A stretch of 64,000 nucleotides of DNA from Candidatus Acidiferrales bacterium (lineage in GTDB: Bacteria; Acidobacteriota; Terriglobia; Acidiferrales; UBA7541): positions 15,994 to 79,993 of the forward strand of contig DASUAV010000174.1 in assembly GCA_035763605.1 (NCBI GenBank), given 5' to 3'. Position numbers and translations under genes: made by a program. The notes beneath the pieces are model-generated. The model ran no database searches, was not told where the DNA came from, and saw nothing but the letters and a program-made list of their open reading frames with translations. Shown here piece by piece: positions 20,386 through 57,580 of the stretch; the first letter of the stretch is position 1, and each line of letters begins with the position of its first letter.

Positions 20386-20581
20386 TTCAACCTCGATATC
20401 ACAGCCTTTCGCTTGCACGTTAACTGTCAACCTGCTCGCTTCTACCTTGGGACAAAGCTCCGCCCCGCGACTTACAGCCGCTTTTTCCGCTGAGTGCCTG
20501 AACTGAAAAATCGGCAGCCCAGTGAACGTATCTCTGAGTGCGGCTAAAACTTTCGTCGGCGCTCAATCCACGGAGTGCTCT

Positions 20582-23969: not shown

Positions 23970-24077
23970 ACAGCTTCGAGACAGACTTCCAACACGCGTT
24001 TGCTTTTTTCCCACCGTTTCTCCCACAGCCCCGTACAAGTGCAGAAACTCCCCCCGCACTGTACCGTTGCGGGGCAC

Positions 24078-32583: not shown

Positions 32584-32947
32584 GGTCCCTCCGTGTTCGA
32601 TTTTTGCGCGAGGGCCAGGCAAGAAAAATACGGGCGCAAACAGCATAGCGCCGCCATTCAATTTGTAAATGGTACCGGCTGCGAGCAGCCTTTTCTGCTC
32701 AACCGCAAGAGAGTGGCCGGAGCGATTTATTCCCGAAAACGAATTAAGCTCCGCTTACAGGTTTAATAGGTTTTGGACGCAGACGAGTAGCGATTGAAGC
32801 GAGGCGGGCGTGAGCGCACGGGCACGTTGAACAACTCAGAATGTTTTCCTCGGAGGTTTCGTCCGCCAGTTCTGAGGCGGTTTGCCGAAGGCCTGCTTGC
32901 CCCCTGCGGCGCGAGAGCAGCCGAACCGTCGCTCGCCTCGTGTTGAG

Positions 32948-35224: not shown

Positions 35225-35249
35225 TTTTGGATCCTCCATAGGTCTACTG

Positions 35250-35897
35250 CTAATTCGGTATGAATTCGCTCAGAGATGGAAAAATCATCTGCGTAAATTT
35301 CACAAGCGTAGCTTTGGCTTCAGCGGTATTGTTGTCGCTAATCGGGGCGATAAGCCGCACAAGAGCCCCATCTGTGCGATTGCGCGTAATCGCGTCGTGA
35401 ATCATCCAGAACTTGCCCCAATATTCGCTTGCAATCACCCGGCCACGGCCTTGATACCAGTAGAAGACCAATTGCTTGTTGAGTCCTTGAGCGATTACAT
35501 ATTCATTTACGGTGATTCGGTTTCCGTTCTCCACTGGAATGGTTGCGTACCCGGACTCGATGGGATCCCATCCTGCGCCCGGCAGACAATTTTTGGGGGA
35601 ATGAATCGTGTCTCCGGTGCGCTGGCTTGCGTAATAACCGACGTAAAGCTCTACAGGCGCGGCTGTGGAACTCGTGTAGACGCGATTGGTATAGTCCGTG
35701 ACACTAACGGCTTGCACGATTCGCTGCTCCAATGGGTACTCTTTGCCGCGCCAATTGCCAATCTCATAAGTCAAATCCTTGAGAGGCTGGCGCGCCATTG
35801 TCGGCTCGCCATGGCTCATGGCGTGAAGCAGGACGGTGCCGCCCAGAAGTACAGCTATCACAATCGCAAATCGAACGACCATGCCGCGGCTACGCAT
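35250..35897 (-). CDS. epsI: EpsI family exosortase-associated protein
   Basis: 215 aa. One N-terminal TM segment, then 'LKDLTYEIGNWRGKEYPLEQRIVQAVSVTDYTNRVY...YVGYYASQRTGDTIHSPKNCLPGAGW', the EpsI signature. 8-nt overlap with the exosortase gene. Confidence 0.85.
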   Translation of the reverse strand: MRSRGMVVRFAIVIAVLLGGTVLLHAMSHGEPTMARQPLKDLTYEIGNWRGKEYPLEQRIVQAVSVTDYTNRVYTSSTAAPVELYVGYYASQRTGDTIHSPKNCLPGAGWDPIESGYATIPVENGNRITVNEYVIAQGLNKQLVFYWYQGRGRVIASEYWGKFWMIHDAITRNRTDGALVRLIAPISDNNTAEAKATLVKFTQMIFPSLSEFIPN

Positions 35898-36783
35898 GGC
35901 TCTGCTCCTTACCTGCTCGAGTTATTTTGCGCAGCAACCAGTGGCAGCCAAACATCAGCAGCAGCGCGGCTACAAAGATCACCCAGCCGGAAAATTCGTG
36001 AAAAAATCCTTCGGCCATATCCTTGCCGAAATGATAGGTCAGTAAGCCGGCACCGAAAATTCGAATGGAATTGCTGACGATAGCAATCGGAACCATGATG
36101 ATGACCATGAACCACCGGATCCATCGCTTGCTTTCGACCAGATAACCGTAGGCGATCGCCAAAGTAATGAGAGTCATCAGCGACCGAATGCCGCTGCACG
36201 CGTCAACGACTTCAAGAGTGTAGTTCGGCAAAATGATCAGGTTACCTTCCCGGAGTACGGGCACGTTGATGAGCTGAAGCCAGAAAGTCGCGAAGCGGGA
36301 AGCCATCAGCTGTAGCGGGAAAGTGATCTGATTGTAGATAAGCACGGGAATTGGAATCATCAATACTAGGAAGGAAAGCGGGAAAAATATGGCCCGCAGC
36401 ATGCCCCATCCCGCGAGGAAAAGAACGATTCCCCCGAGCAGAACCAGTAGCGAACAGCGGGTTGAGAATAATTCAGCTCCCAGTGAGCCCACCAGCAGGA
36501 TTCCGATGGCGGCAAGCATTACAAAGATGCCGAAGTTGGCAGGCTTCATCTTCGTTTGCGCCAGCCTTTGCCGCTCTTTCCAAAGCACGAATGCAGAGAA
36601 AACCGGCACGAGAAAGCCATGGCCGTAGTTGGGATCGGTCCACCAATCCAGAACCAAAGCCTTAAGAATCGCGCCGTAAAGGAGGAGAACCAAGGCTGCA
36701 AATATGCCTATCCATAGAGGCCAGAGGATTCGGGTCTCGGATCTCTGCTGTGCCAGAACGGCCTGTGCCGGGGAATTTGCCAC
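35890..36783 (-). CDS. exosortase (EpsH/Xrt family transpeptidase)
   Basis: 297 aa, GTG start. 'WWTDPNYGHGFLVPVFSAFVLW', catalytic-Cys block 'VVDACSGIRSLMTL' and 'VSNSIRIFGAG' are exosortase hallmarks. About 8 TM segments. Confidence 0.9.
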   Translation of the reverse strand: MANSPAQAVLAQQRSETRILWPLWIGIFAALVLLLYGAILKALVLDWWTDPNYGHGFLVPVFSAFVLWKERQRLAQTKMKPANFGIFVMLAAIGILLVGSLGAELFSTRCSLLVLLGGIVLFLAGWGMLRAIFFPLSFLVLMIPIPVLIYNQITFPLQLMASRFATFWLQLINVPVLREGNLIILPNYTLEVVDACSGIRSLMTLITLAIAYGYLVESKRWIRWFMVIIMVPIAIVSNSIRIFGAGLLTYHFGKDMAEGFFHEFSGWVIFVAALLLMFGCHWLLRKITRAGKEQSHA

Positions 36784-36986
36784 GTTAGTCCACCTAGTTT
36801 GATGCCAAAAACGGGCTGAGTAGAACCCGATTTTGCCAGATCAAGCGTAAACCTCTGCGCATACGTGCAAGACGCTTGCCTAAACCCATGAAAACGAATT
36901 GAATAGTGGTGGATAACACCTTTAGCGACTGTAATTTAGGCGCGTCATAATCTGCCGATAAGAAAGCCTGCGGCAGGCAAGCTGCA

Positions 36987-37004
36987 TGTGCAAATTATTG
37001 CATA
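36987..37004. promoter_or_regulatory. palindromic candidate operator TGTGCAA-ATTA-TTGCATA, upstream of the exosortase operon
   Basis: Lies in the 333-nt gap between the cysQ stop and the exosortase start. It matches the site at 40909..40926 in 13 of 14 arm positions, and the left flank GCTGC..ATG is also shared. Confidence 0.4.
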
Positions 37005-37116
37005 TTTGCCAGTGTTTTTGTTCCTCTCTTTACCGAGCTATCTGATTTCATTCTGCCTGGATCGAGAACTGGTGAGCTATTTTTCGCAAGAGCGGATGAG
37101 TGTTCAGAAGGAGTAG

Positions 37117-37959
37117 TTATTTTGGGGACCTGACCAATGCGTTTGCCCAAGGACGGCAATCCTCGAATTCTGGGCTCGTGATCAGTTCGGAAAGAAATGG
37201 GTGCAATTTGGCCAGCCCTGCAGACGAGAAAGCAATAAGCCCTCGAAAAATGGGATCGGGCTGGTTGAATGTTGGAGGTTCTCCATTGAGCTGCAGGACG
37301 ATGCCGCCCGCAAAGCAGACAAGCGCCACGCCCGCAGCCACGTCCCATTCATGTTTTGGGACCAGAGTCCAAGTGGCGTGGGCTCTGCCGATCGCGACCA
37401 AGCCAAGTTTATAGGCCACCGATCCCATAGCCAGCATGCGAAATTTCGATTTGCTGAAGCGTTCCCATTCTCCTCGCTTGACTTCGCTGCGGCTGCCGAG
37501 CACCAGTGGTTCAAAATCCAGTGCCTTGCAATTGCCGTTTACGGCGCAGTTTGCGGCAGATATGCCAGCTTCCAAGGAGCCATAAACGAGTTCCCCAGTG
37601 CAGGGATTGAGTATGCCGGCGGCAACGAGATGCCCTTCCTCGAGCAAAGCGACTGAAATGCACCATTCGGGGATGCCAGAAACGTATTCTTTGGTGCCAT
37701 CCAGCGGATCAACCAGCCAGATTCTCGAGCAATGCAAACGTTCAGAATTATCGGCGCTCTCTTCGGAGAGCCATCCCTCCCCGGGCTGCACAAGCATGTT
37801 GAACAACAACTGATTGACTTCCTGCTCGGCATCCGTTACGGGATCGCCTCCGTCTTTTCGATTAACGCGGACTGATTCCATCGAGCGGGAACGGTACAGC
37901 TTTGCGCCCGCTTCCAGCGCGCCAACGATTTTCTCTGTGTCTTCTTTATGAGTTGTCAC
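37117..37959 (-). CDS. cysQ: 3'(2'),5'-bisphosphate nucleotidase (CysQ / inositol monophosphatase family)
   Basis: 'WLVDPLDGTKEY' (DPxDGT metal site) and 'EWDVAAGVAL' (WD motif). GTG start 37959. Confidence 0.8.
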   Translation of the reverse strand: MTTHKEDTEKIVGALEAGAKLYRSRSMESVRVNRKDGGDPVTDAEQEVNQLLFNMLVQPGEGWLSEESADNSERLHCSRIWLVDPLDGTKEYVSGIPEWCISVALLEEGHLVAAGILNPCTGELVYGSLEAGISAANCAVNGNCKALDFEPLVLGSRSEVKRGEWERFSKSKFRMLAMGSVAYKLGLVAIGRAHATWTLVPKHEWDVAAGVALVCFAGGIVLQLNGEPPTFNQPDPIFRGLIAFSSAGLAKLHPFLSELITSPEFEDCRPWANALVRSPK

Positions 37960-38032
37960 TCTCTTCCTTTGCTTTCTATTTATTCGATCTCACGAGTGTA
38001 GGGAAGCAGGAAGCGCTTGCAGACATTCAAAA

Positions 38033-38812
38033 CTAAAGCATCGATATGCCGGCGGCTACCAGAGCTGAAAACAGCACCATTCGGAGCCATGCTGCACGAA
38101 AGGATGTCGCATACTGAGCAGCGATCCACGCAGCCGGAATTGACCCTAACAGTAGAGCCGCTAGTAAGGAAAAATCGACATTACCCAGAATGAAATGGCC
38201 CGTGCCAGCGACCAAGGCGAGGACCACGGAATGCGCGATGTCCGTCCCGACGAGCATCTGCAATCGGCGACTGTAAAACAGGACCAGCAGAACCATTATG
38301 ATGCTGCCGGAGCCCATTGAAGTCATGCCGACAAGGAATCCTCCGATTACCCCAACGGCAATTGCGCCGTTTTGCGGCGTAATCCAGACTGGCAGTCGCT
38401 CGCGAAGGCTTTTCTTGCCTGTCTTCTGGAGGTATCTCTGGAAGAGAGCGAATCCGGGAGTAACAATCAGAAGCACGCCAATCATGATCTTGAGCAGCTC
38501 ATTGACACTATTTCCGAGATGAACTCGCAAAATGGCAAGCGTGGTCACGCCGAGAATCGCCCCGGGAATGCTTCCAAGAGACATTCGTAAGACGAGGCGA
38601 GTATCAACACAGCCCCGCCGGTAGTAAGACCAAGCTGCGCCAACCTTTGTAGCAGCAACAAAGAGAGCCCCGGTTCCGACCGCGAGAATTGGAGAAACGT
38701 CGAGAAGAAGCACCAACAATGGAACGAGGAGCGCACCACCGCCTACACCGGTCAGCCCTACCATGGCCCCGACGGCGACGCCTATGAAAAGCGCAAGAAG
38801 AATGTGGTGCAT
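38033..38812 (-). CDS. TauE/SafE family sulfite/anion exporter-like membrane protein
   Basis: 259 aa, about 8 TM segments. Internally duplicated 'GVGGG.L.VP.L' type motif ('LTGVGGGALLVPLLVLLL' and 'MGSGSIIMVLLVL'). Confidence 0.75.
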   Translation of the reverse strand: MHHILLALFIGVAVGAMVGLTGVGGGALLVPLLVLLLDVSPILAVGTGALFVAATKVGAAWSYYRRGCVDTRLVLRMSLGSIPGAILGVTTLAILRVHLGNSVNELLKIMIGVLLIVTPGFALFQRYLQKTGKKSLRERLPVWITPQNGAIAVGVIGGFLVGMTSMGSGSIIMVLLVLFYSRRLQMLVGTDIAHSVVLALVAGTGHFILGNVDFSLLAALLLGSIPAAWIAAQYATSFRAAWLRMVLFSALVAAGISML

Positions 38813-38826
38813 CTCGCTCGTTCTCT

Positions 38827-40572
38827 CTAAGAGTTAGATTCCGCCGCCTCGCCGACGTAACCTTCTTTTTCCAGATACAACATGATCTCCTGGGCCGCCT
38901 CTTCTGGGCTCATCTCGGCAGTGTTGAGAACGATTTCTGGGTCGCTGGGCTCCTCGTAGGGATCGGAAATCCCGGTAAACGTCGGAATGAGTCCAGCTCG
39001 GGCTTTTGCGTACAACCCCTTTCTGTCGCGCTGCTCGCAAATTTCCAAGGAGGTGGATGTGTGCACCAGAATGAAACCGCCCGAACTTGAAACCAGCTGG
39101 CGCACTTCTTTCCGAATGCTGTCATACGGCGCAATTGGCGCGCAGACTGCAATCCCACCATTCTTGGTAATTTCGTGCGCCACAAATCCGATTCGTCGAA
39201 TATTGAGGTCGCGATGCTCTTTTGAAAACGTCAGTTCAGAAGAGAGGTTCTTGCGCACGATATCGCCGTCGAGCAGCGTCACCGGTCTTCCGCCCATCTC
39301 CAGAAATTTGACCAGCAGAACGTTGGCAATAGTGGACTTTCCAGAGCCGGAGAGACCGGTAAAGAAGACCGTGAAACCTTGTTTACTTCGCGGAGGGTAA
39401 GTTCGGCGCAGTTCCGTAACCACCTGCGGATATGTAAACCAGGTGGGAATCTCGCGGCCTTGAGCGAGCCGAGCGCGCAGTTCGGTTCCCGAAATATTCA
39501 AGACGCGGCTGCCCTGTGGAACTTCATCCTCCGGCATGTAGGTGTCTTTGTCTTCGAGGTAGACCATCATTTTGAACGGCACCATGGTCACGCCGATTTC
39601 TTGTTGAAATTGCTGCAAGAGCTTCTGCGCTCCATAGGGATCATAGAATGGCTTCCCCTTGGAATCCTTTCCTGGACCAGCATGATCGCGGCCCACAATA
39701 AAATGTGTGCAGCCAAAATTCTTACGGATGATGGCGTGCCAAACGGCCTCACGCGGCCCGCCCATACGCATCGCGAGAGGTAGCAGCCCGAGCTTAACTG
39801 TGTTTGCAGGATAATGAGGGAGAATTGCCTGGTAACAACGAACTCGCGTGTAGTGGTCCACATCGCCAGGCTTGGTCATTCCCACAGACGGCTGAATGAA
39901 TAGGTTCGCGGACGCTTCCTTCGCGGCGCGAAAGGTAAGCTCAACGTGGGCGCGATGCATGGGATTGCGAGTCTGAAAAGCAACCACTCGACGCCATCCG
40001 AGCCGCGCAAATTCTGCGCGCGTCTCCGCGGGAGTCAATCGAAGAGAACGATAATCGTAATGCGCCGGAAGCTGCAAGCCGTCGATTTTCCCGGACACAT
40101 ACACCGGATTGGCCCTTTGCATCGCATAGACTGCGCCGGGGTGCAAAGAATCCGTCGTACCGAAGACACTCTCCGCTTCCTTTTGACGGTCCGGCTCCCA
40201 TAATTCTTCAACGTGCAGCGCTGCCAGCATTACGCCTTCAGGATCTCGCAATGCGAGTGTGGCACCGGGCTTGAGTTTCTTCGCAAACTCCGCGCCAATG
40301 TCTAAAACAATAGGCATGGGCCAGACTAAGCCTCCGGCGAGATGCATGGTCGAGCAAACCGACTCATAATCAGCACGGCTCATGAAACCCTGAAGAGGCG
40401 AAAATCCGCCATTCATCAGCAACTCGAGATCGCAAAGCTGTCGAGGTGTGAGGTCAAGCGAAGGCCATTCCTTTGAGGCAGAACGCAATTCTTCTCGACG
40501 CTTCGCGTCCACGATGAGATTAACGAGGGTACCGCCGTGGGGTGGATTCAAGTGCTCGGGCTTGTTATTCAT
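38827..40572 (-). CDS. bifunctional sulfate adenylyltransferase (ATP sulfurylase) / adenylylsulfate (APS) kinase
   Basis: ATP-sulfurylase motifs 'FQTRNPMHRAHVEL' and 'HFIVGRDHAG'. The C-terminal APS kinase has the P-loop 'FFTGLSGSGKSTIANVL'. ATG 40572 (MNNKPEHLNPPHGGTL) fits the usual Sat N-terminus; the longest ORF reaches 40638. Confidence 0.9.
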   Translation of the reverse strand: MNNKPEHLNPPHGGTLVNLIVDAKRREELRSASKEWPSLDLTPRQLCDLELLMNGGFSPLQGFMSRADYESVCSTMHLAGGLVWPMPIVLDIGAEFAKKLKPGATLALRDPEGVMLAALHVEELWEPDRQKEAESVFGTTDSLHPGAVYAMQRANPVYVSGKIDGLQLPAHYDYRSLRLTPAETRAEFARLGWRRVVAFQTRNPMHRAHVELTFRAAKEASANLFIQPSVGMTKPGDVDHYTRVRCYQAILPHYPANTVKLGLLPLAMRMGGPREAVWHAIIRKNFGCTHFIVGRDHAGPGKDSKGKPFYDPYGAQKLLQQFQQEIGVTMVPFKMMVYLEDKDTYMPEDEVPQGSRVLNISGTELRARLAQGREIPTWFTYPQVVTELRRTYPPRSKQGFTVFFTGLSGSGKSTIANVLLVKFLEMGGRPVTLLDGDIVRKNLSSELTFSKEHRDLNIRRIGFVAHEITKNGGIAVCAPIAPYDSIRKEVRQLVSSSGGFILVHTSTSLEICEQRDRKGLYAKARAGLIPTFTGISDPYEEPSDPEIVLNTAEMSPEEAAQEIMLYLEKEGYVGEAAESNS

Positions 40573-41112
40573 AGGAAAGTTGGAACGTGAACTATGCCTC
40601 CCATTGAGATTTTTACTTCCTTGCGGTCGCCACATCAATATCGAACGGCTCGCTATGCGCGACTCACCTGTCTTATTTGTTCACCTTAATCCTATTCGTA
40701 AAAACTAGGAGAAACAGAAGCCACGAGGACCTAATCGGGACATGGTCAAAAAATCACTTCCGTGCGCGCCAGAACGGACATTGTGAATCCGCGTCAATGA
40801 CAAAGCAATTCGCGCTCCGAACATGACCAGAAACCCATTGCGCAACATACGTCATTACATAGGATTACATCGGAAAACTCAAAAATCAAAGTTAGATCTT
40901 GCTGCCGATGTGCAACCTATTGCACAGTACCAGCCCTGCCCGTTCCATATACGTCCGCGCTCTTGTTCCGTCCAAATGTGAGATGACCTCCGGCACGATG
41001 ACGGCGATTTCTAAGCTACTGCGAGGTAGATTTGCTAGAATTTTTGCGCTGTCGACAAAGGCGAGCCATCGAATAGAAGTTCGAATCAACGTTTGGCAAA
41101 AAGGCAAAGAGT
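40573..41112. promoter_or_regulatory. long, visibly AT-richer divergent intergenic region (sat/cysC <-> deacetylase)
   Basis: About 540 nt with no convincing ORF. Contains the palindrome at 40909..40926 and an 8-bp palindrome TTGCGCAA near 40837. Confidence 0.4.
40909..40926. promoter_or_regulatory. perfect palindromic candidate operator TGTGCAA-CCTA-TTGCACA
   Basis: Perfect 7-bp inverted repeat with a 4-nt spacer, 187 nt upstream of the deacetylase ATG 41113. Near-identical copy at 36987..37004. Confidence 0.4.
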
Positions 41113-42198
41113 ATGTCTCCGCGTGAAATCAATCCGGACGGTTTGCACGAACGTAGAAATCGTCGATCGTGGCCCATACCGTTGGGCTTCGAGTTGGCAA
41201 AGCTAGTCGGCCCGCGATATGCGCTGCGTTGCCTGCTGTTTCATGACGTTGCCGATGAGGTGTCGGAGTTTACAGATGGTCTGGGCGTGACGCTTGGCGT
41301 TCCCGGGTTCGAGGCGCTGATCCGTTTCGTCTCGCGCTACTACACGGCAATCACGTTAGAAGATTACCTCGGCTTTCAAGCGAGTGGGAAGTTTCCGCCG
41401 CGCCCGGTCCTGATCACGTTTGATGACGCGTACGCATCAGTGGCTTCGAATGCAGCTCCCATCCTAAAAGAATACGGAGTTCCCGCCGTGTTCTTTGTCA
41501 CCGCCTCCCTTGTGGGAAATGAGGAGTTAGGTCTGGACAATCTGCTCTGCTATGTGACCAATAGGTTCGGATTTGAAGCAGTGCAAGCCGTGGGCCGTCA
41601 GTTTTCATCTGAACGAAGGGAATTCGAGTCGCTTGAGCAGGTTTTCGATGACTTGCTTCCGGCAATGTCTCGAGAGCGTATACGGCAGCTCCGAACAGCG
41701 CTCGCTGCGGCAGCAGGAGTTTCGACGCGAGAGCTGGCCCAAAAAGCGCAGCTGTACGTCAATGCGGGACAACTGCGTGCGCTGACACAGAATGGATTTG
41801 AGATTGGAAACCATACCTTCTCGCACGTATTTTGCCGGACTCTTTGTCCGAATGAGTTTCACGACGAGATTGACTTGAATAAAGCAACGTTAGAGACGAT
41901 TACCGGTTCGAGAGTCAGGGCGTTCAGCGTGCCTTATGGCTCGCCGGTAGACCTGACCAGTGAACTTGTCGAGAATCTACGGCGTTCCGGGCATGAACTG
42001 GTTTTTTTGGCTCGCGACCGGCCGAATCCGCCGCAAACGGATCCGTTTCATCTGAATCGAGTCAACATGCATTCCGGCACAGAGCGGGATTTCTTCGCGG
42101 AAATCGAACTGCTTCCGAGGCTTCGCTCATTGGTCGATATCCTTTTGCGAAGAAGACAAGGCCGGAACGGATTGCCGAATCATATGTATCTCGCTTAA
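41113..42198 (+). CDS. polysaccharide deacetylase (NodB homology / CE4) family protein
   Basis: 'PRPVLITFDDAYASVASNAAPILKEYGVPAVFFV' (TFDD motif) and 'FEIGNHTFSH' (His motif). Confidence 0.85.
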   Translation: MSPREINPDGLHERRNRRSWPIPLGFELAKLVGPRYALRCLLFHDVADEVSEFTDGLGVTLGVPGFEALIRFVSRYYTAITLEDYLGFQASGKFPPRPVLITFDDAYASVASNAAPILKEYGVPAVFFVTASLVGNEELGLDNLLCYVTNRFGFEAVQAVGRQFSSERREFESLEQVFDDLLPAMSRERIRQLRTALAAAAGVSTRELAQKAQLYVNAGQLRALTQNGFEIGNHTFSHVFCRTLCPNEFHDEIDLNKATLETITGSRVRAFSVPYGSPVDLTSELVENLRRSGHELVFLARDRPNPPQTDPFHLNRVNMHSGTERDFFAEIELLPRLRSLVDILLRRRQGRNGLPNHMYLA

Positions 42199-42235
42199 TT
42201 TTCGGGAGGAGGATTTCGCTAAAGTTTCAACCTTA

Positions 42236-43060
42236 ATGAGAATCATCCTCGTTACCGCCGACAATCTGGAACACATCTATGTTGCCAACAAGCTCGCCGA
42301 GGCGATCCCGCTCAGCAGCATCATCATAGATCATGGAAGGCGCATCAGCTTGCTCGCCAAGGCGCGGCGTCTCTGGCGCAAATACACGGTCCGGCAGCTA
42401 CTCTCGCGCGTTCACGTGGCAGTAATGACTCGCATCTGGCGAGATGAAGCAATCGGCCGCAGTTCCATGCTCGCGGCTTACGGAGCTGAGAACTGTTTGA
42501 AGTTTTCCCATCCGGAACTGCTCCAGCACATCCATGGCATCAACACACCTGACGGTACGCGAGCCGTAGCATCAACAAGTCCGGATGTGCTACTGATTTA
42601 CGGTACGGTGCTGGTGAGCTCGCGAGTGCTTTCCTTGGCTAAGGTGATTGCCCTGAATATGCACACCGGCATCTCGCCGAATTACCGTGGAGCAGATTGC
42701 GCGTTTTGGCCCCTTTATAACGGTGAACTGGAAATGGTTGGCGCGACGGTGCATGAATGCACGCGTGACATTGATGGTGGGCGGATATTTGGCACGGCAA
42801 GAGCGCGGTTGCGGCCCGAGGATGACGTTTTTTCGGTGTTCGCTCGTTCAGTAATCGCAGGTGCCGACCTTTACGCCGCCAAAGTGAAGGAACTCCTCGC
42901 CGGAGACCTCAACGGCATTCGCCAGGACCTGTCGTTGGGCAGGGAGTACAGAGCGTGCGAGAGAAGCGTAGCTGCTGAACAGATGGTACGAAAGCGTATT
43001 CGAGAGGGCCTGATCAAAAGGTTCGCGAATGCGGTACCGGAAGCAGACCTACACGGCTAA
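42236..43060 (+). CDS. stand-alone formyltransferase (Fmt/ArnA-N-terminal-like)
   Basis: 'IALNMHTGISPNYRGADCAFWPL' corresponds to the N-x-H-x-SLLPxxRG block, and '...ATVHECTRDIDGGRIFG' carries the conserved Asp. 274 aa, with no C-terminal tRNA-binding domain. Confidence 0.7.
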   Translation: MRIILVTADNLEHIYVANKLAEAIPLSSIIIDHGRRISLLAKARRLWRKYTVRQLLSRVHVAVMTRIWRDEAIGRSSMLAAYGAENCLKFSHPELLQHIHGINTPDGTRAVASTSPDVLLIYGTVLVSSRVLSLAKVIALNMHTGISPNYRGADCAFWPLYNGELEMVGATVHECTRDIDGGRIFGTARARLRPEDDVFSVFARSVIAGADLYAAKVKELLAGDLNGIRQDLSLGREYRACERSVAAEQMVRKRIREGLIKRFANAVPEADLHG

Positions 43061-43308
43061 TAGGTTTCCCCAAAATAAAACTCCAAACTCCTTGTATATC
43101 TATGCCTTAGGCCCGCCGACTTGTGCGGTTTTGGGCACGGCCTCACTTACGACCCACTAACACCCCCTCCACTTGGTCCTTGTACTGGACTCGGGCACAC
43201 AGCGGGTACAGGTGCGAGAACCTGAACCATTTTCCGACTACCGAGCAGGTGTTTTGCGTTTCATCTCCCGTCACAATCGCAGCACGGTCGGGTAAAGACC
43301 GGAGTCCA

Positions 43309-46251
43309 ATGGGGAGAAATGAAATGCACACCAAAACCCAGCAACTCAGTTCTTTGCACGCTCAGTCGATCCAGGAAAGCAGCCTAATACGATGCCGGCG
43401 CTGGATGGCGACTATAGCGGTGTTGAGCACCTTGTTATGCGTCAGCATTGGCCTAGCCGGGTGTGCACTGAGCGGCTCCTCTGCGACTCCGCCTCCACCC
43501 TCAAGTCTAAGCATAACTACGCCGAGCCTCACGTCGGCTAAGCAGCAGTCCACTTACAATGCAGTATTAACCGCTACCGGCGGCAGCTCTCCTTACCATT
43601 GGAGTGTCAGCTCCGGCTCTTTGCCGAGCGGATTGTTCTTGACGAGCTCGACTGGCGTAATTTCCGGAACCGCCGCGCAGTCAGGGAGCTTCCCTTTCAC
43701 AGTCCAAGCTCAGGATTCTTCTTCGCCGATACAGACGGCCACTCATAACTACACAATCTCCGTTTCTGCTCCGAATTCCAGTTCGGGCGTCAGCATTACC
43801 ACCAGCAGTATGCCTCCTGGAACGGTTGGAGCTTCCTATTCAAAGACTCTGAGTGCCAGCGGCGGCACGTCGCCTTATACATGGGGAATCGCTTCCGGTG
43901 CACTGCCTGCGGGGATCTCACTGAACGCGTCCACGGGAACGGTATCGGGGACCCCTTCTCAGCAGGGAACTGCGAATTTCACAGTAAAAGTATCGGATTC
44001 AGCTCAGCAAAGCGCGCAAGCTGCATTGAGTATCAATGTCTCGACTGGTACGAACAATACTTCGCTGATTATCACTACAACTTCTCTCCCCGCTGCCCAA
44101 GTTTCGGTGCCGTATTCGGCAACAGTCACAGCGAGTAATGGCACGGCGCCATATACGTGGAGCCTGGCATCGAATTCCGGGCCGCTGCCTGCTGGACTGA
44201 CCCTATCCGCTACGACCGGCACAATTTCCGGCACCCCGACTACCGCAAGCGCATACAACTTTACGATCCAGGTCTCCGACAGCAGTGCTCCGCAACAAAG
44301 CGCTTCCCAGACGTTCACTCTTTCTACGTCCGGCGTAGCGCTGGATCAGTACGGCGGCCGCGAAGATATAAAATGCGCGACCGCGACCGGCGTCTTCCAC
44401 GTGGAAAAAATTCAGAATCAATGGTGGTTCTGCACGCCGCTGGGAAATGCCTTCTTTATGCAGGGCATTTATGTCGTTTCTGCAAGTGATTCCAATTATT
44501 CAGCGGCAGTTACCGCCAAATACGGGGATAACGGTCCTCAGTGGAGCATCCACACGAACCAGAGGATGGAAAGCTGGGGATTCAACACCCTCGGCATTTA
44601 TGCGAACCGGATAAATCTTCCCACTACGACGGACAACCGTTTTCCACTTGACTCCCAAGGCCTGCATTCCCAGCCCGTGAAAATGCCTTTCATATTGGTG
44701 GTGAGGCCCGCTTTGTATTCCATGGAAAACCCCGCGATCTCAACAGTTAACTTCACCAACCAGCAATTCCTTACCGAGCCTGTTAAGAACATGCTCGGAG
44801 GGCTAAGTCCCGTTTATACCGGCTTTAGGCCCGCTAACGGAGTGGCTGACTACTTCGACGTCAACATGAGAAACTGGCTCGATCAGGACCTGAGTTTGGA
44901 ATCGGGAATAAACCAAATTGCCAAGTCTCCCTATTTCCCGTATGTATTAGGAATCGGCACCGATGATGGAGACGAAATGTTCGGCTTCGGAGCCGGCGAT
45001 GCTCTTCCCACACAGCCGCTCGGCCACACGAATCCCAATCTCTCCTGGTTGGTTGCCACAATGGCTCCCGTTCAGACAGCCAGCTCAAAATTGAAAGCCG
45101 TCTATGGTGATACCACCGTGTACACCAAGAAGGCCTGGCACGACATGCTTGTAGCGAAGTACGGATCAATCGCAGCCCTAAATACAGCTTGGGGCTCAAA
45201 CTACAGCACGTTCGACTCCTCCGGCACACCTGTCTCGGGTGAATCGGTTGGGACAGGGAACGGAAGCACGCTCAGTTTCTCGCATTCAATTTCTAAACTC
45301 ACTCCTACCGCCCATTCGATACAGATTTTGCTCAACGGTACTCCTATTGGAGGCGATCTCGGAAACGGCACGATTTACGGACCAACTCTGGCGACCACAA
45401 GCGCAATTAACTACACCACCGGCTTGCTGCAAGTGAACTTTACGTCCGGAAATGCTCCCGCTTCGGGAGCGGTAATCACGGTCAGCTACATTCAAAATGG
45501 CTGGGGCATCGGCAGCGGACTAATGGACGAAGACGGGCGCGTTGCTCATCAAGCATGGCTGGGCATCGATTACACCAGCCTGTCGGATACAAACGCAAAC
45601 GTCAAAACTGACCTTAACAATTTCCTTTTTTCGATGGCCGATCAGTACCTCGGTATGTGCGCCACGGAAATCAAAAAGGTGTTCCCCAATCTGCTATTCC
45701 TCGGCCCAGACAGCCTGGGCAGCTACGGAGATCCGCCGCGCTCACAAGTGCTGCAAGCTGCGACGAAATATCTTGACGTTCTTTCTGGGCCCGGCGACAT
45801 CGAGCGAAGCCAGGCGGCAATCGATTTCCTCGGTCAGTACTTCGGCGATAAGCCGGTTATTGAGGGGCAGTATCGTTCCGCCAACGCCGACTCGGCCTGG
45901 AGTTCGGTCACAAAGACGATTGATAACATTCATGAGTTTGCAACCCAGCAGGCTCGCGGACAAGACTACTATAATGACGTCACCACCTTGCAGTCTCTCT
46001 CGTACACCGCCATCGGCTCACATCCATTCATCGGCGCATCGTGGTGGCAATACACCGACAATCGAAGTGAGCAGCGGAACTGGGGTTTGGTCACATTGTT
46101 AGATAATGCGTATGACGGACACGAAGCCGTTTCCGCGCAAGTTTCCTGCTCCGCTCCGATTCAGGGCTTCACGTGTGGCGGCGAGGCGGGCAACTACGGC
46201 GATGTCATCACGCAGGTACGCGCTGCTAACCTGTTCTGGCTGACTCATTAG
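43309..46251 (+). CDS. large lipoprotein: three Ig-like (He_PIG-type) repeats + ~640-aa domain of unknown family
   Basis: The start is uncertain (43309, 43324 or 43405; the longest ORF starts at 43123). Lipobox 'GLAGC'. Repeats carry 'LPSGL.L...TG.ISGTP'. The C-terminal domain is paralogous to 50687..52651. Confidence 0.8.
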   Translation: MGRNEMHTKTQQLSSLHAQSIQESSLIRCRRWMATIAVLSTLLCVSIGLAGCALSGSSATPPPPSSLSITTPSLTSAKQQSTYNAVLTATGGSSPYHWSVSSGSLPSGLFLTSSTGVISGTAAQSGSFPFTVQAQDSSSPIQTATHNYTISVSAPNSSSGVSITTSSMPPGTVGASYSKTLSASGGTSPYTWGIASGALPAGISLNASTGTVSGTPSQQGTANFTVKVSDSAQQSAQAALSINVSTGTNNTSLIITTTSLPAAQVSVPYSATVTASNGTAPYTWSLASNSGPLPAGLTLSATTGTISGTPTTASAYNFTIQVSDSSAPQQSASQTFTLSTSGVALDQYGGREDIKCATATGVFHVEKIQNQWWFCTPLGNAFFMQGIYVVSASDSNYSAAVTAKYGDNGPQWSIHTNQRMESWGFNTLGIYANRINLPTTTDNRFPLDSQGLHSQPVKMPFILVVRPALYSMENPAISTVNFTNQQFLTEPVKNMLGGLSPVYTGFRPANGVADYFDVNMRNWLDQDLSLESGINQIAKSPYFPYVLGIGTDDGDEMFGFGAGDALPTQPLGHTNPNLSWLVATMAPVQTASSKLKAVYGDTTVYTKKAWHDMLVAKYGSIAALNTAWGSNYSTFDSSGTPVSGESVGTGNGSTLSFSHSISKLTPTAHSIQILLNGTPIGGDLGNGTIYGPTLATTSAINYTTGLLQVNFTSGNAPASGAVITVSYIQNGWGIGSGLMDEDGRVAHQAWLGIDYTSLSDTNANVKTDLNNFLFSMADQYLGMCATEIKKVFPNLLFLGPDSLGSYGDPPRSQVLQAATKYLDVLSGPGDIERSQAAIDFLGQYFGDKPVIEGQYRSANADSAWSSVTKTIDNIHEFATQQARGQDYYNDVTTLQSLSYTAIGSHPFIGASWWQYTDNRSEQRNWGLVTLLDNAYDGHEAVSAQVSCSAPIQGFTCGGEAGNYGDVITQVRAANLFWLTH
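43504..44328 (+). repeat. three tandem ~90-aa Ig-like coding repeats inside the lipoprotein gene
   Basis: The repeats begin 'LSITTPSLTSA...TATGGSSPYHWSV..GSLPSGL', 'VSITTSSMPPG...SASGGTSPYTWGI..GALPAGI' and 'LIITTTSLPAA...TASNGTAPYTWSL...GPLPAGL'. Confidence 0.75.
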
Positions 46252-46471
46252 GCTCCCGGCTAGCCGCGACGAGAAGCGGCGCAGAAGCATGTGGCTGGCA
46301 CGGAGAGCCCCGCCGCAGAGAGCGCACAATCGCGGACTCTCAAAGGCTAAACAACTGTTTGATTCGAATTTACGCGGTGTCGTTTTGCGCGCGAATTGGC
46401 TGGTAGCCAGTATCCGACGTGCATTATGCCTGCATCGGATTATTCACAATTTCCGGCGTTCTTTGCTGGCA

Positions 46472-47560
46472 TCAAGTAGCAACCTTTGTTTCCGCGCGAA
46501 CCGTGTTTACTTCCGTGCCGCTCTTCCAAGCAGAGAGATCGCGACCAAGCAATGCCTCAGTAGCTTCGATCTGGGGTCCGATCGCGGTTCGGAGGCGGAC
46601 CGCTGTCTGCGTGTCCAGAGACGGCATCTCCGTGAAGACCACTTTCCGAAGCTGTTTGCCTAAAGACGTTCGCGCGGCGATCTCTACCATTCTTTGCGCT
46701 CCATGCCGGCGTACCCAGTGAAGAAACGCTTCGAATTTGTCGGGTCGGTCCTTGCCGAGGCGAAAAAACCATCGCAGAAAACGTCCAAAGGCAGTCCCTC
46801 GCGGCATCTGTTTGAGAGCGTGGACGCGCTGCTCTGGAGCAACCGGAGCACGGCGCACATCGATTGTGGGAATCCCAATAAAGTCGCAGATTTGACTGAT
46901 GTAGCTCTGCGGAGATGCGACGAAATCATCGTACAGCACAACAAGCACTCTAGCTTCGCCGAAAGTCGCTTGCCAAAGACGGACGTATTTGGCGTAATCG
47001 CATGCGTCTATAATTTCAGCCCAATGCTTTTCCGTGGCTTCGGCAAAGCTCACGGTCGTGCGTCCATTCCAAACGCTCAATCTGTAAAGCGAATACTGGC
47101 GTTCGACCGGGTCCCTCAACGTTATTATAATTCTGCAGCCAGGAATATCCCGGGCGATCCGCTCGCGGGCTTCACGATTGTAGAAATAAGTCGGGGCGAT
47201 CTCGCCGGCAGGTTTTTCTCCCGGGCAATTCGCGAAGTATTTTGCATACAGGGACAAACCCTTGTCGTAATCACGGTCAAAAAAATTGGTCTCTTTGATG
47301 TTCGCAGGCAAGCCGACGCTTCCCACTAAGAACTGGTGAAGCCATGTTGTGCCAGTACGCGTAGGGCCGACCGCAATGAAGCTGGGGAGGCGTGTGATGG
47401 TCTGATCTCCCTGCTTCGCGCTTGCGAGGCTCGGCGCGTTGTCATTCCCGCTTCTCGTCAAGGAGTCAGCCTTTCCCGATTTGCTTGTTGAGTTTAAGGA
47501 GTGCACAGGCTCCAAAATCCTTCGCGATCTTGTTCTATTCTCTGCCCGATACAGGTACAT
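46472..47560 (-). CDS. sulfotransferase family protein
   Basis: PAPS 5'-phosphosulfate loop 'GPTRTGTTWLHQFL' and 3'-phosphate motif 'ITLRDPVERQYSLY'. The start is ATG 47560 or GTG 47563, overlapping the upstream sulfotransferase stop. Confidence 0.85.
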   Translation of the reverse strand: MYLYRAENRTRSRRILEPVHSLNSTSKSGKADSLTRSGNDNAPSLASAKQGDQTITRLPSFIAVGPTRTGTTWLHQFLVGSVGLPANIKETNFFDRDYDKGLSLYAKYFANCPGEKPAGEIAPTYFYNREARERIARDIPGCRIIITLRDPVERQYSLYRLSVWNGRTTVSFAEATEKHWAEIIDACDYAKYVRLWQATFGEARVLVVLYDDFVASPQSYISQICDFIGIPTIDVRRAPVAPEQRVHALKQMPRGTAFGRFLRWFFRLGKDRPDKFEAFLHWVRRHGAQRMVEIAARTSLGKQLRKVVFTEMPSLDTQTAVRLRTAIGPQIEATEALLGRDLSAWKSGTEVNTVRAETKVAT

Positions 47561-48410
47561 CACTGTCAGCCATGTGCGGTACGTTGGCTTGTTCAGATTG
47601 CAAATCGTACCCCAAGCTTCGCATCAGCGGACCCCATGCGGACTCAATTGCTGACACTTCCTCGGAATTCAAAGCTGATCGCCAACCTCCGGTCACTGCG
47701 GTGCGCACAAACCGAATATCTTTTCGTTTTGCCCGCGTTCCGATCCAGCGATCCTCATCGCGCTTTTCCAATTCCCTCATGCGTTCCGCCGTGCTTTTCT
47801 CCGCCGCTGTACTCAATCTAGCCCCATCGCACCGGATTCCCAAGAAATCAGCCACCTTCGCCAGCTCCGCTACGGTAGTCTTCTTCATTTTCTCGTACTG
47901 AAGCAGCAGGAAATCTTCTTTGCTGAATCGCGTACTTATCCAGCTGGCCACGTTTTCACCCCACGACGCGTATGTCGGATCCACTTCTCCCAGAACAAAA
48001 CGCTGGACAAATTTGCTAATCGGATATCCGTCAGTAATAAATCCCTGTTTTAGATGAAAATAGTAATACGAAATCACCACGTCGCGCGGATCGCGGACGA
48101 TGTATATCAACTTCTTGTACCGCGGATCGAAGTATTGGTGAGTCTTTATGAGGCGTGGCCGGGGAATGCGGTCAAGCTCGCGGTGCGTGATGTTGATAAC
48201 ATCAGGAATCAGATAATCGATATTCAGGAAACTGACCTCTTTTTCAGGAAACAACAGATTCGCGATCAGAAACCGTGTCCACGTATTGCCCGATCGGGGA
48301 TAGGAAACCAGGAAACGATCATCCGGGTAAATCTTAAAATTGCGGCCTCCTCGGTTCAGCCCCATGAGGGTCTTGAATCCGTCGATCAGGTCCGCTGTTG
48401 TTCTCAGCAT
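47535..48410 (-). CDS. sulfotransferase domain protein
   Basis: 'VSYPRSGNTWTRFLIANLL' (5'-PSB loop) and 'IYIVRDPRDVVISYYYF' (3'-PB motif). Confidence 0.85.
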   Translation of the reverse strand: MLRTTADLIDGFKTLMGLNRGGRNFKIYPDDRFLVSYPRSGNTWTRFLIANLLFPEKEVSFLNIDYLIPDVINITHRELDRIPRPRLIKTHQYFDPRYKKLIYIVRDPRDVVISYYYFHLKQGFITDGYPISKFVQRFVLGEVDPTYASWGENVASWISTRFSKEDFLLLQYEKMKKTTVAELAKVADFLGIRCDGARLSTAAEKSTAERMRELEKRDEDRWIGTRAKRKDIRFVRTAVTGGWRSALNSEEVSAIESAWGPLMRSLGYDLQSEQANVPHMADSDVPVSGRE

Positions 48411-48663
48411 TCGGGGTCCCTTCGCCGAGCGACTGCGCGCCGCCGTATAGGCAGAACGACCTATGAGCTGGCCGTCTATCCGCGTTTACTTCGCATCAGC
48501 TCGATACTAGAATAGCCTTTGAACGCGAATGAGCCAAGATCAGCCGCATCAAACTTTTCTATGCGAGCGATACCTCATTCCGGAGCTTCGATAGAGACGT
48601 GAAACAGCCGAATTGTCGCTTGCGGGCAATTTCAACAGGCCGGACAGTAAACTCTGCTCGAAT

Positions 48664-49746
48664 ATGAATGCGCCATCCTCAACCGGTTCCCCTGAACGGA
48701 CTGCAAGAGAGCAGGAAGTGGAGGTCCTGACGGCTACAGAAGAAGACTCCACGCAGTGGAACGAGTATGTCTTCCGACGTGGGGAGTGTGCGAACTACCA
48801 TCGATGGGACTGGAAAAAAGTCATTGAGGAGGCATTTTGTTGGAAGACCTGTTACCTCGTCGCTAAGGACAAGGGTACGATATGCGGCATTTTGCCCTTG
48901 GCTGAGAACAAGAGCCGCCTTTTTGGGCATCTGCTATGTTCACTTCCTTTTTTCAGCGAGGCTGGAATTGTTGCGGACTCGCCGCCAGTTGCGAACGCAC
49001 TTGCGCAAGAAGCCGTTCGATTAACGGAGCGGGCTGGCGCCAAGTATATCGAGCTTCGCCACGCGCATGACATCGCTCCGTCCTGGCGCTCGAAAACAAA
49101 CAAGGTGACGCTCGTGTGCGATGTGTTTGCCGACCCGGAAGAAAATATGCAGCATCTCTCGACGAAAATGCGAACGAACGTGAGGCGCTCGTTAAAGTCA
49201 GGTTTTCAAGCAGAGTTCGGCGGGCGGGAATTCCTTGACGATTTTTATGAGATTTTTTGCCTCAAGATGCACGAATTGGGAACGCCTCCGTATGCCAAGA
49301 GATTTTTCCATCTTATTCTGAGCGCATTCCCGCAGGATGCCTTTATCTGCCGTGTGCGGCACGCCGGGAAGACAGTTGGAGCTGCTTTTCTCACCGGCTA
49401 CCGCGATACAATTGAAGCAAACTGGAGTGCCTGTGCTGGAGACGCGATGTCGCTTCGGCCAAACATGTTTCTGTTTTGGGAACTGCTTTGTTTTGCGGGG
49501 CGAAAGGGCTATCGCACATTCGATTTTGGTCGCTCTTCGATCGATTCCGGGACGTACCGCTTTAAGCAGCAATGGAATACTCGCGTGGTGCCTCTAAATT
49601 GGAACTACTGGAGCAAGTCGGGCGAGCAGGCACTGGAACTGAATCCGGCTAATCCGCGATATCAGGCGGCCATCTGGGCGTGGAAACATTTGCCGCTCTC
49701 AATTACAAAGCTGGTTGGCCCGGCGATTGCCCGATGCCTGCCGTGA
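48664..49746 (+). CDS. FemAB-family protein, PEP-CTERM/exosortase-locus-associated type
   Basis: 'QWNEYVFRRGECANYHRWDWKKVIEEAFCWKTCYLVAKDKGTICGILPLA' and '...FRFKQQW' resemble the FemAB-related family found in exosortase loci. ATG 48664 gives ~360 aa. Confidence 0.7.
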   Translation: MNAPSSTGSPERTAREQEVEVLTATEEDSTQWNEYVFRRGECANYHRWDWKKVIEEAFCWKTCYLVAKDKGTICGILPLAENKSRLFGHLLCSLPFFSEAGIVADSPPVANALAQEAVRLTERAGAKYIELRHAHDIAPSWRSKTNKVTLVCDVFADPEENMQHLSTKMRTNVRRSLKSGFQAEFGGREFLDDFYEIFCLKMHELGTPPYAKRFFHLILSAFPQDAFICRVRHAGKTVGAAFLTGYRDTIEANWSACAGDAMSLRPNMFLFWELLCFAGRKGYRTFDFGRSSIDSGTYRFKQQWNTRVVPLNWNYWSKSGEQALELNPANPRYQAAIWAWKHLPLSITKLVGPAIARCLP

Positions 49747-50690
49747 ACGCCGGGCCGCTCGCCGAGACAGTCCGCGTCTCGGTGATAATTCCCACGAAGA
49801 ATCGCGCTGCGGACCTGGAACGAACGATCGACACGCTTCTGATTCAGACAGTGAAACCATTCGAAATAATCCTTATCGATCAAAGCGCAAAGCCGTCATT
49901 TACCAGAAATCTATCCATTCCGATGCATTACATTCATGACTCTGCGCTCTCTGGGGCTTCTGTGGCTCGAAATGTCGGAATGCGCGGAGCCAAGGGAGAC
50001 ATTTGGCTGTTTCTCGACGACGATGTTGTCCTGGAGCCGAATTTCATCGAAGAAATCCTAAAAACCTATCGCGAAGATGTTACCGGAGTGTCCGGGATCA
50101 TTACCAATTACTCGATGCCGCCATTGCGCCAGAGGTTCTGGGAGAAGCTTTTCCAGAAAGGCCCATTCCGCGATGAGAGACAGACCGTCTATCGAAACGT
50201 GAGTCGGCACAGCCAGGTTGGATCTGTTCGGGTCCGGTTTTTTGGAGCTGGGCTCATGAGTTTTCGCGCGGAAGCGATTCGTGAGCACCGATTCGACCCC
50301 CGCTTAACAGGCCCGTCTCCCGGTGAAGATGTGGATTTCTGCTTGCGATTGCCGAAAGAGAGTACATTGCTGATTACACCGCGCGCCCGACTGATTCATA
50401 ACCGCAGTCCCGAGAATAGAAAGAGTTCCCACTGGCTGAGTGTCCAATCCCAGGTTTTTTACTACTTGAGGGAGCGGCACTGGCGGCAAGGAATGTGGAA
50501 CAACATTTGTTTTGCGTGGCTTAAGATGGGCTACGCAGTGCTTGCCAGCTATTCGTTCGTCAGAACTGGATCTCTAGAGGCTTGGCACGCCTGGTGCGCG
50601 GGAGCGAAAAAGGGCAGGGAGCTAGCCGCGCCAGGATCAAGCCAAACAAACAATGTCATCCGTAGCTCGATAAAAGGGAGCAGGAGATGA
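49734..50690 (+). CDS. glycosyltransferase family 2
   Basis: 'VSVIIPTKNRAADLERTIDTLLIQTVKPFEIILIDQS' and 'LFLDDDVVL' (DxD). ATG 49734 overlaps the FemAB stop by 13 nt. Its stop overlaps the next ATG (ATGA). Confidence 0.85.
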   Translation: MPAVNAGPLAETVRVSVIIPTKNRAADLERTIDTLLIQTVKPFEIILIDQSAKPSFTRNLSIPMHYIHDSALSGASVARNVGMRGAKGDIWLFLDDDVVLEPNFIEEILKTYREDVTGVSGIITNYSMPPLRQRFWEKLFQKGPFRDERQTVYRNVSRHSQVGSVRVRFFGAGLMSFRAEAIREHRFDPRLTGPSPGEDVDFCLRLPKESTLLITPRARLIHNRSPENRKSSHWLSVQSQVFYYLRERHWRQGMWNNICFAWLKMGYAVLASYSFVRTGSLEAWHAWCAGAKKGRELAAPGSSQTNNVIRSSIKGSRR

Positions 50691-57569: not shown

Positions 57570-57580
57570 TTTGTACCCGG

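Follow-up and report, generated by a model that had tools for sequence, protein, structure and literature searches.

The classical precedent for linking the genes that make the sulfate donor 3'-phosphoadenosine 5'-phosphosulfate (PAPS) to a gene that uses it is found in rhizobia, where nodPQ accompany nodH in the sulfation of Nod factor, and raxPQ with raxST of Xanthomonas are comparable. The acceptors in these cases are a lipo-chitooligosaccharide or a peptide and not a Wzy-type polymer, and we know of no linked permease or phosphatase described as part of either module. Outside the cyanobacteria, little is said to be known of the routes by which bacteria make sulfated extracellular polymers (PMC10483923). 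In the marine gammaproteobacterium Cobetia marina KMM 1449, the gene cluster for a sulfated capsule has cysN/C, cysD and cysQ along with genes for a sulfate permease and a sulfotransferase (PMC11766843), and the corresponding cluster of Vibrio sp. KMM 8419, also a marine gammaproteobacterium, contains second copies of cysNDC together with three sulfotransferases; the authors of the latter work regard PAPS genes accompanied by sulfotransferase genes as a hallmark of sulfated polysaccharide synthesis (PMC11641403). The synechan (xss) cluster of Synechocystis sp. PCC 6803, a Wzx/Wzy-type exopolysaccharide (EPS) cluster with two sulfotransferases, has been genetically linked to sulfated EPS (PMC8205485). 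Here we describe a 64-kb stretch of DNA from an uncultured soil member of the Acidobacteriota (contig DASUAV010000174.1; the whole stretch is called the window below), in which a polysaccharide locus with an exosortase gene of the XrtA type carries genes for PAPS synthesis and two sulfotransferase genes.

The XrtA-type polysaccharide locus spans position 32948 to at least 63439 of the window. We consider it fairly probable that the product of the locus is an extracellular glycan that is sulfated and assembled in the Wzx/Wzy manner, with its own PAPS supply, its own sulfate transfer and its own removal of 3'-phosphoadenosine 5'-phosphate (PAP).

The PAPS cassette and the two sulfotransferases

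A cassette of three genes occupies 37117-40572 on the minus strand, in the order sat/cysC, TauE permease and phosphatase, and is followed by xrtA, epsI and prsT. The sulfotransferase genes form a pair (46472-48410) about 6 kb from sat/cysC and about 10 kb from xrt, among the EPS genes of the XrtA system. These five minus-strand genes had been named, with their motifs, in an initial annotation made from the sequence alone. The profile searches which that annotation proposed matched the Sat/CysC, TauE, Inositol_P and Sulfotransfer families and identified all five genes, and every motif it quoted is present in the translated proteins. The phosphatase protein was found in identical form on 20 metagenome contigs, which come from the same organism and show an unchanged gene order. 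Because the arrangement is conserved in other contigs and genomes, it is not a chance juxtaposition.

The mechanically called open reading frame (ORF) of sat-cysC runs from 38827 to 40638, and gene callers and homologues put its start at 40572, giving a protein of 581 aa. This protein scored 924.9 bits (cut-off 669) against the model NF004040, 'bifunctional sulfate adenylyltransferase/adenylylsulfate kinase', in agreement with the fused ATP sulfurylase/adenosine 5'-phosphosulfate (APS) kinase first proposed. The ATP-sulfurylase motifs QTRNPMHRAH (aa 200) and GRDHAG (aa 294) are present, and the APS-kinase motifs GLSGSGKST (Walker A, aa 406) and LDGD (aa 434) are both intact. The best match among solved structures was 1i2d, the Penicillium ATP sulfurylase with a regulatory C-terminal domain, in which the positions aligned with these two kinase motifs read GYMNSGKD and LLGD; the Aquifex enzyme 2gks was also matched. 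Since the Walker A and LDGD motifs are intact here and degenerate in the fungal protein, Sat-CysC, like its Aquifex counterpart, should be able to make PAPS itself. Its identity to proteins of metagenome-assembled genomes labelled Terriglobales, Candidatus Sulfotelmatobacter and similar is at most 74%. The second of these labels prompted us to consider a role in dissimilatory sulfur metabolism, and we rejected it in view of the intact APS kinase and the absence of apr/dsr genes nearby.

The permease has about eight hydrophobic segments and scored 148.4 bits against the TauE family (PF01925, cut-off 32.6), well in line with the TauE/SafE-type anion transporter that had been assigned to this position. 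Sulfate uptake has been demonstrated for members of the TauE family (PMC11535334), and CysZ of Corynebacterium belongs to the same TSUP family (PMC5840216). Together with the linkage to sat/cysC, these precedents suggest that the permease may import sulfate and not export sulfite or sulfonates. The third gene of the cassette encodes a phosphatase of the inositol-monophosphatase (IMPase) superfamily (Inositol_P, PF00459, 134 bits) with the metal-binding motifs DPLDGT (aa 84) and WDVAAG (aa 205), which occur across the superfamily and do not mark CysQ in particular.

Both sulfotransferases scored above the cut-offs of their families, and both carry the two PAPS-binding motifs, as the initial annotation had it for this adjacent pair among EPS genes. 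Sulfotransferase 1 matched Sulfotransfer_3 (62.8 bits, cut-off 27) and Sulfotransfer_1 (57 bits, cut-off 22), and has PTRTGTTW as the 5'-phosphosulfate loop and RDPVERQYS as the 3'-phosphate motif; its start is uncertain, with gene callers giving 326-347 aa and the ORF 363 aa. Sulfotransferase 2 matched Sulfotransfer_1 at 113.3 bits (cut-off 22), and the corresponding motifs are PRSGNTW and RDPRDVVIS. Among solved structures, sulfotransferase 1 matched the bacterial sulfotransferase 3rnl and the heparan sulfate 3-O-sulfotransferase 3-OST-3 (62-63 bits), and also the sulfotransferase domain of the heparan-sulfate enzyme NDST. Its KETNFFD aligns with AEPHFFD of 3-OST-3, a region which we take to surround the catalytic glutamate in the 3-OST/NDST group. 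For sulfotransferase 2 the best match was 5x2b (81 bits), and its KTH aligns with the TH of cytosolic sulfotransferases (SULTs), presumably including the catalytic histidine of that group. Neither protein has a signal peptide or a membrane segment; both are thus cytoplasmic, which fits enzymes using cytoplasmic PAPS.

Conservation of the locus and of the cassette

A block of at least 21 kb recurs as a whole, at 66-93% protein identity per gene, in the NCBI assembly GCA_046704945.1 (L167 in our numbering of loci), and the same block is found on two metagenome contigs (L168 and L169). Sat-CysC is 93-95% identical in these three loci, and the homologues of sulfotransferase 1 show 66-79% identity by tblastn. 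The conserved order runs from a family 2 glycosyltransferase (GT2) through the Wzy_C, flippase-like and GH50-like genes, a second GT2, the FemAB gene, a sulfotransferase and sulfotransferase 1 to the He_PIG/GH50-like gene, the formyltransferase and deacetylase genes (seen in L167), sat/cysC, TauE, the phosphatase and the exosortase. The second sulfotransferase slot is kept, and the gene in it differs: a different sulfotransferase is found in L167 (8715-9617), and L168 (8516-9391) and L169 (4803-5702) each have one with 57% identity, encoded on the strand opposite to that used in the window. Such variation points to turnover of modification enzymes, as is typical of modification genes. More widely, homologues of sulfotransferase 1 that are 58-81% identical lie in polysaccharide loci, and relatives of sulfotransferase 2 (39-53% identical) lie within 10 kb of a PAPS cassette in eight other genomes. 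It is scarcely credible that the sulfotransferase-like and phosphatase-like genes are inactive relics beside an unsulfated polymer, given their undamaged reading frames, the preservation of the motifs for PAPS binding and catalysis, and the homologues at 57-81% identity that hold the same position in other genomes.

The initial annotation had also proposed to look for co-occurrence of these genes next to exosortases in related genomes. We examined 80 metagenome loci encoding relatives of the exosortase (57-92% identity), of which 54 had at least 1 kb of upstream sequence. The order xrt-epsI(-prsT) was conserved wherever the contig was long enough, and the cassette was found directly upstream and in the same direction in 9 of the 54. 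These nine loci fall in at least three exosortase clades of a rough neighbour-joining tree, and eight of them have the phosphatase gene behind sat/cysC. We examined what precedes sat/cysC in three loci of different clades that have both cassette and xrt, and in each case it was polysaccharide genes once more (FemAB-like, DegT, methyltransferase, asparagine synthase, UDP-GlcNAc 2-epimerase and heparinase II/III-like). Neither of the two sulfotransferases was found in the 80 exosortase-centred loci, which is uninformative, as the contigs are mostly short compared with the distance of about 10 kb. One locus with cassette and xrt (L140) has a sulfite-oxidase-type molybdoenzyme (Oxidored_molyb and Mo-co_dimer; 13580-14884, minus strand) downstream of prsT.

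A second survey was centred on the cassette and used 80 genome loci encoding relatives of Sat-CysC. Right behind sat/cysC, about 45 of these keep the phosphatase gene and about 30 also the TauE gene, and almost none of the 45 or so has an exosortase nearby. We then took a Pfam census of 243 genes around 34 cassettes, nearly all from Acidobacteriota. The commonest families in these flanks were GT2 (10), polysaccharide deacetylases (10), sulfotransferases (at least 9), Phosphodiest (8) and flippase families, and heparinase II/III-like, asparagine-synthase and UDP-GlcNAc 2-epimerase families also recurred. The heparinase II/III-like gene, often with an asparagine-synthase-like gene and sometimes with a UDP-GlcNAc 2-epimerase gene, was seen near the cassette in L012, L018, L024, L027, L038, L057 and L092. 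Among the most frequent families listed for these flanks there were no PAPS reductase, sulfite reductase or cysteine synthase families, and the CysH motif ECG[IL]H occurred in one ORF in all 80 cassette loci.

These surveys bear directly on housekeeping assimilation, in which sat/cysC, TauE and the phosphatase would feed a PAPS or APS reductase and would be merely adjacent to polysaccharide genes. A cassette with more than 596 relatives in the genome collections and the same order in more than half of the loci examined is certainly widespread, most cassettes are not next to an exosortase, and Sat-CysC is far more conserved than its neighbours, as would be expected of a core enzyme. We nevertheless consider this explanation unlikely. 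Glycosyltransferases, sulfotransferases, deacetylases and flippases prevail in the cassette flanks, and no assimilation family is among the most frequent ones listed there. A cell has no need of an intact APS kinase and a linked phosphatase unless it consumes PAPS, and in the window two sulfotransferases lie close by within a conserved block. The cassette may have a dual role and supply both assimilation and sulfation. Following these analyses we regard the cassette as a mobile, conserved acidobacterial PAPS module that is habitually found in polysaccharide loci. The sulfation role itself is supported by the synteny of the block, by the recurrence of the cassette beside xrt, and by cassette flanks that hold sulfotransferases and not cysH or sulfite reductase genes.

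The polysaccharide genes and a possible route to a sulfated glycan

The features of the window are collected in Table 1. Besides the exosortase, the genes epsI and prsT, a FemAB-family gene and a polysaccharide deacetylase gene are markers of the XrtA/PEP-CTERM system. The exosortase passes the XrtA model TIGR03109 marginally (211.1 bits, cut-off 208), and scores 213 bits against the generic exosortase model (105.55).

Table 1. Features of the window, by position (strand - or +; L numbers denote loci in other genomes and contigs).
Feature	Position	Strand	Evidence
PseB (second sub-locus)	18740-19834	-	passes TIGR03589
UpxY-family antiterminator (second sub-locus)	19783-20430	-	
Wzc-like export gene (second sub-locus)	20582-22840	-	
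Wza-like export gene (second sub-locus)	22842-24077	-	
PrsT, TPR lipoprotein of XrtA/PEP-CTERM system	32948-35239	-	TIGR02917 341.7 bits (cut-off 312.2)
EpsI, exosortase-associated protein	35250-35897	-	PF11984 187 bits; TIGR02914 138 bits (cut-off 42.8)
Exosortase, XrtA type	35890-36783	-	PF09721 259 bits; TIGR03109
Inositol-monophosphatase-superfamily phosphatase, putative PAP phosphatase	37117-37959	-	PF00459
TauE/SafE (TSUP) family permease, putative sulfate importer	38033-38812	-	PF01925
Bifunctional ATP sulfurylase/APS kinase (sat-cysC fusion)	38827-40572	-	NF004040; Pfam PUA_2, ATP-sulfurylase, APS_kinase
Polysaccharide deacetylase, divergent from sat/cysC	41113-42198	+	PF01522 89 bits
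Formyltransferase-like protein	42236-43060	+	PF00551 35 bits (cut-off 26.1); NF005414 67 bits, below cut-off
Lipoprotein-like, He_PIG Ig repeats and GH50-like C-terminal domain	43123-46251	+	PF05345 131 bits; start probably later
Sulfotransferase 1, heparan-sulfate 3-OST/NDST-like	46472-47563	-	Sulfotransfer_3 and Sulfotransfer_1
Sulfotransferase 2, cytosolic-SULT-like	47535-48410	-	Sulfotransfer_1, full length
FemAB-family XrtA/PEP-CTERM system-associated protein	48613-49746	+	TIGR03019 341.7 bits (cut-off 260.35)
Family 2 glycosyltransferase	49680-50690	+	PF00535 76.5 bits
Secreted GH50-like glycoside hydrolase (predicted)	50687-52651	+	signal peptide; phmmer, AlphaFold2, Foldseek
Multi-pass membrane protein, 10 hydrophobic segments, putative repeat-unit flippase	52662-54173	-	conserved position
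Wzy_C-family polymerase / O-antigen-ligase-like	54226-55512	-	PF04932 57 bits
Family 2 glycosyltransferase	55565-56548	-	Pfam; kept in L167, L168
DUF362 protein	56550-57620	-	Pfam; kept in L167, L168
427-aa protein without assigned family	57581-58864	-	
Family 4 glycosyltransferase	58900-60078	-	Pfam
Alkaline-phosphatase-superfamily protein (Phosphodiest)	60075-61277	-	PF01663 59 bits
DegT-type aminotransferase-like protein	61274-62455	-	PF01041 141 bits
XrtA-system polysaccharide deacetylase	62456-63439	-	TIGR03006 304.1 bits (cut-off 276.2)

The deacetylase and formyltransferase-like genes ahead of sat/cysC are both kept beside the cassette in L167 and L088. In L088 (2213-4555) they are co-directional with sat/cysC-TauE-phosphatase-xrt and in the window they are divergent; the change of orientation is an inversion, with the genes still together. 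The flippase-like protein matched no family in the Pfam and NCBIfam searches, and its gene is kept next to Wzy_C in L167, L168 and L170. DUF362 is the best-conserved gene of the EPS block, at 91-96% identity (for the part present in L167 and L168) compared with 66-92% for its neighbours. Genes of the Phosphodiest family also rank high among those that flank the PAPS cassette elsewhere in the Acidobacteriota (8 of 122 flank genes).

Two proteins of the locus proved to be paralogous GH50-like glycoside hydrolases in comparisons of sequence and predicted structure: the secreted protein of 654 aa, and the He_PIG protein in its C-terminal part. The He_PIG protein also has LAGC with a hydrophobic segment at aa 93-119. 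Neither the 654-aa protein nor this C-terminal part matched a family in Pfam or NCBIfam, and close homologues of the C-terminal part share about 57-59% identity with the 654-aa protein. The latter gave a phmmer match to the GH50 beta-agarase 4bq2 (E 2.8e-13), and the top Foldseek matches of its AlphaFold2 model (pLDDT 91.3) were all GH50 (E 1e-21). The same family adjoins xrt in L120, L122, L123, L125, L138, L150 and L155. Because the top-matching solved GH50 structures are all agarases, save two entries titled only 'GH50', these hydrolases may hint at a galactan-type polymer.

From these genes the following route can be proposed. Sulfate would enter through the TauE-family permease and would be converted by Sat-CysC in the cytoplasm, first to APS and then to PAPS. 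The two soluble sulfotransferases would move sulfate from PAPS onto sugars of a lipid-linked repeat unit that the neighbouring glycosyltransferases have assembled, perhaps after the neighbouring deacetylase has exposed an amine, and the IMPase-like enzyme would hydrolyse the inhibitory PAP to AMP. The sulfated unit would then be flipped, polymerised by the Wzy-like protein and exported, and outside the cell the two GH50-like hydrolases would probably trim the polymer. The adjacent XrtA-EpsI-PrsT genes would belong to the same matrix-building programme.

That a polysaccharide is the acceptor is suggested by the gene context. PAPS might instead serve the sulfation of something else, such as a lipopolysaccharide (LPS) or capsule glycan, a glycolipid, PEP-CTERM proteins (on their glycans or tyrosines), or a small metabolite. 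Sulfotransferase 2 has as its solved relatives cytosolic small-molecule and glycopeptide-antibiotic sulfotransferases, some sources name the homologues of sulfotransferase 1 'LPS sulfotransferase NodH', the Wzy_C family also covers O-antigen ligases, and the dedicated PAPS genes for the sulfation of Nod factor (nodPQ/nodH) and of a peptide (raxPQ/raxST) count on the same side. We find this doubtful, however, as the sulfotransferases stand amid the FemAB marker of the XrtA system and glycosyltransferase, flippase-like, Wzy-like and GH50-like genes in a block that stays together across genomes. In addition, sulfotransferase 1 aligns best with polysaccharide sulfotransferases, and family searches found no secondary-metabolite or lipid-synthesis genes in the block.

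Several observations weigh against a self-contained sulfation module for an exosortase-linked glycan. The cassette does lie upstream of exosortase, epsI and prsT on the same strand, as the initial annotation stated, although a gap of 333 bp with two terminator-like hairpins separates the phosphatase gene from xrt. A consensus scan of 32500-49000 for promoters and terminators gave counts no higher than in shuffled sequence, hairpins included, and the gap neither demonstrates nor excludes co-transcription of cassette and xrt. None of the ORFs of at least 60 aa in the window ends in a PEP-CTERM-like tail, despite the complete xrtA-epsI-prsT set; genes for PEP-CTERM substrates are usually scattered through the genome. 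Family searches of the window found no priming glycosyltransferase, and the nearest relatives of sulfotransferase 2 with solved structures are small-molecule enzymes. The window has a second polysaccharide sub-locus (1-24077), and the polymer of either might be the sulfated one. Judged from 64 kb of the genome, the cassette might feed sulfur assimilation as well, or nothing else. Finally, the cassette is absent from 45 of the 54 related xrt loci. Because most of these loci lack it and most cassettes have no neighbouring xrt, the arrangement seen here is recurrent but in the minority, and the exosortase link is facultative. The module first proposed is strengthened by the block synteny, the nine xrt linkages and the polysaccharide-type flanks; that it is dedicated and self-contained is a presumption.

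The phosphatase also belongs among these difficulties. Its best NCBIfam match was the CysQ model TIGR01331, at 104.3 bits, below the cut-off of 228.8; it scored 78 bits against a second CysQ model, NF008182 (below the cut-off of 379), and 92 bits against the HisN model. Structures of SuhB and IMPase were matched at least as well as those of CysQ, both with the single sequence (SuhB 72 bits, Mycobacterium tuberculosis CysQ 62, Bacteroides CysQ 59) and with a profile of 30 cassette-linked phosphatases (SuhB 129 bits, Bacteroides CysQ 117, M. tuberculosis CysQ 80). The motifs and the linkage behind the earlier 'CysQ-type' label are real, but the CysQ cut-offs are missed, and we infer a PAP-phosphatase role from the conserved linkage with sat/cysC and not from subfamily membership.

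The second sub-locus lies entirely on the minus strand and includes Wza-like and Wzc-like export genes and an UpxY-family antiterminator gene. PseB is its sole nonulosonic-acid-type gene to pass a model cut-off; PseC-, PseH-, NeuB/PseI-like and cytidylyltransferase-like genes all scored below theirs. These genes suggest that the island with the sulfation genes also encodes a sugar of the nonulosonic-acid type. A 1241-aa ORF of this sub-locus (6338-10063, minus strand) combines an asparagine-synthase-like amidotransferase (aa ~140-700) with a Polysacc_synt flippase domain (aa ~770-1075), which may be a true fusion or may come from reading through two separate genes. Neither Rfam families nor tRNA genes were found when the window was scanned for them.

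Significance and comparison with described systems

Of the organic sulfur in soil, 20-60% is present as sulfate esters (PMC4267179). If the polymers of loci such as this one are sulfated, that would bear on how abundant soil bacteria build their matrix and on the origin of soil sulfate esters. Perhaps soil and peat Acidobacteriota widely make sulfated matrix polysaccharides with the sat/cysC-TauE-phosphatase cassette, which would stand with sulfotransferases in polysaccharide loci and in some lineages be wired to XrtA; the polymers might be N-sulfated following deacetylation or, in view of the GH50-like hydrolases, galactan-like. We put this forward tentatively; if it is true, the Acidobacteriota, which are among the most abundant soil bacteria, would contribute substantially to the sulfate esters of soil, as a biological source that has gone unrecognised. 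The finding matters most if they prove to be common producers of such polymers. The fused sat/cysC with TauE and an IMPase-like phosphatase, beside sulfotransferases in Wzx/Wzy or XrtA loci, provides a signature for soil Acidobacteriota that can be searched for in metagenomes.

The initial annotation had considered the combination uncharacterised for exosortase/PEP-CTERM loci. In full-text literature searches, no paper was found that relates sulfation to exosortase or PEP-CTERM loci, or that deals with sulfotransferases in the EPS loci of Acidobacteriota. The claim of novelty holds in this respect, but the concept of the module itself has been published for the capsules of Cobetia and Vibrio. 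What appears to be new is the exosortase context and the acidobacterial setting, with non-orthologous parts.

Measured against the XrtA/PEP-CTERM EPS system, the window is a regular member, with the XrtA, EpsI, PrsT, FemAB-family and XrtA deacetylase markers all passing their cut-offs; unlike most related xrt loci, it adds the sulfation cassette. With the synechan cluster it shares two sulfotransferases of distinct subfamilies (PF00685 and PF13469 types) in a Wzx/Wzy-type cluster. That cluster is cyanobacterial and plasmid-borne, however, and the main text of the paper mentions neither PAPS nor CysQ nor sulfate adenylyltransferase, with exosortase named only outside it (PMC8205485).

The closest likeness is to Cobetia and Vibrio, where a polysaccharide cluster also carries its own PAPS-synthesis genes and sulfotransferases (PMC11766843, PMC11641403), and Cobetia further resembles the window in having a phosphatase, its cysQ, and a sulfate permease (PMC11766843). 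The polymers of these two bacteria are chemically proven to be sulfated, whereas the locus in the window is known from its genes alone. Their clusters have a heterodimeric CysD/CysN(-CysC), another permease and export by an ABC transporter (Kps). In the window we find instead a Sat of the homo-oligomeric type fused to CysC, a TauE permease, a divergent phosphatase of the IMPase family, Wzx/Wzy-type genes and an adjacent XrtA, in a member of the Acidobacteriota. On these comparisons, the parts of the window would be functional analogues, and not orthologues, of those in Cobetia and Vibrio.

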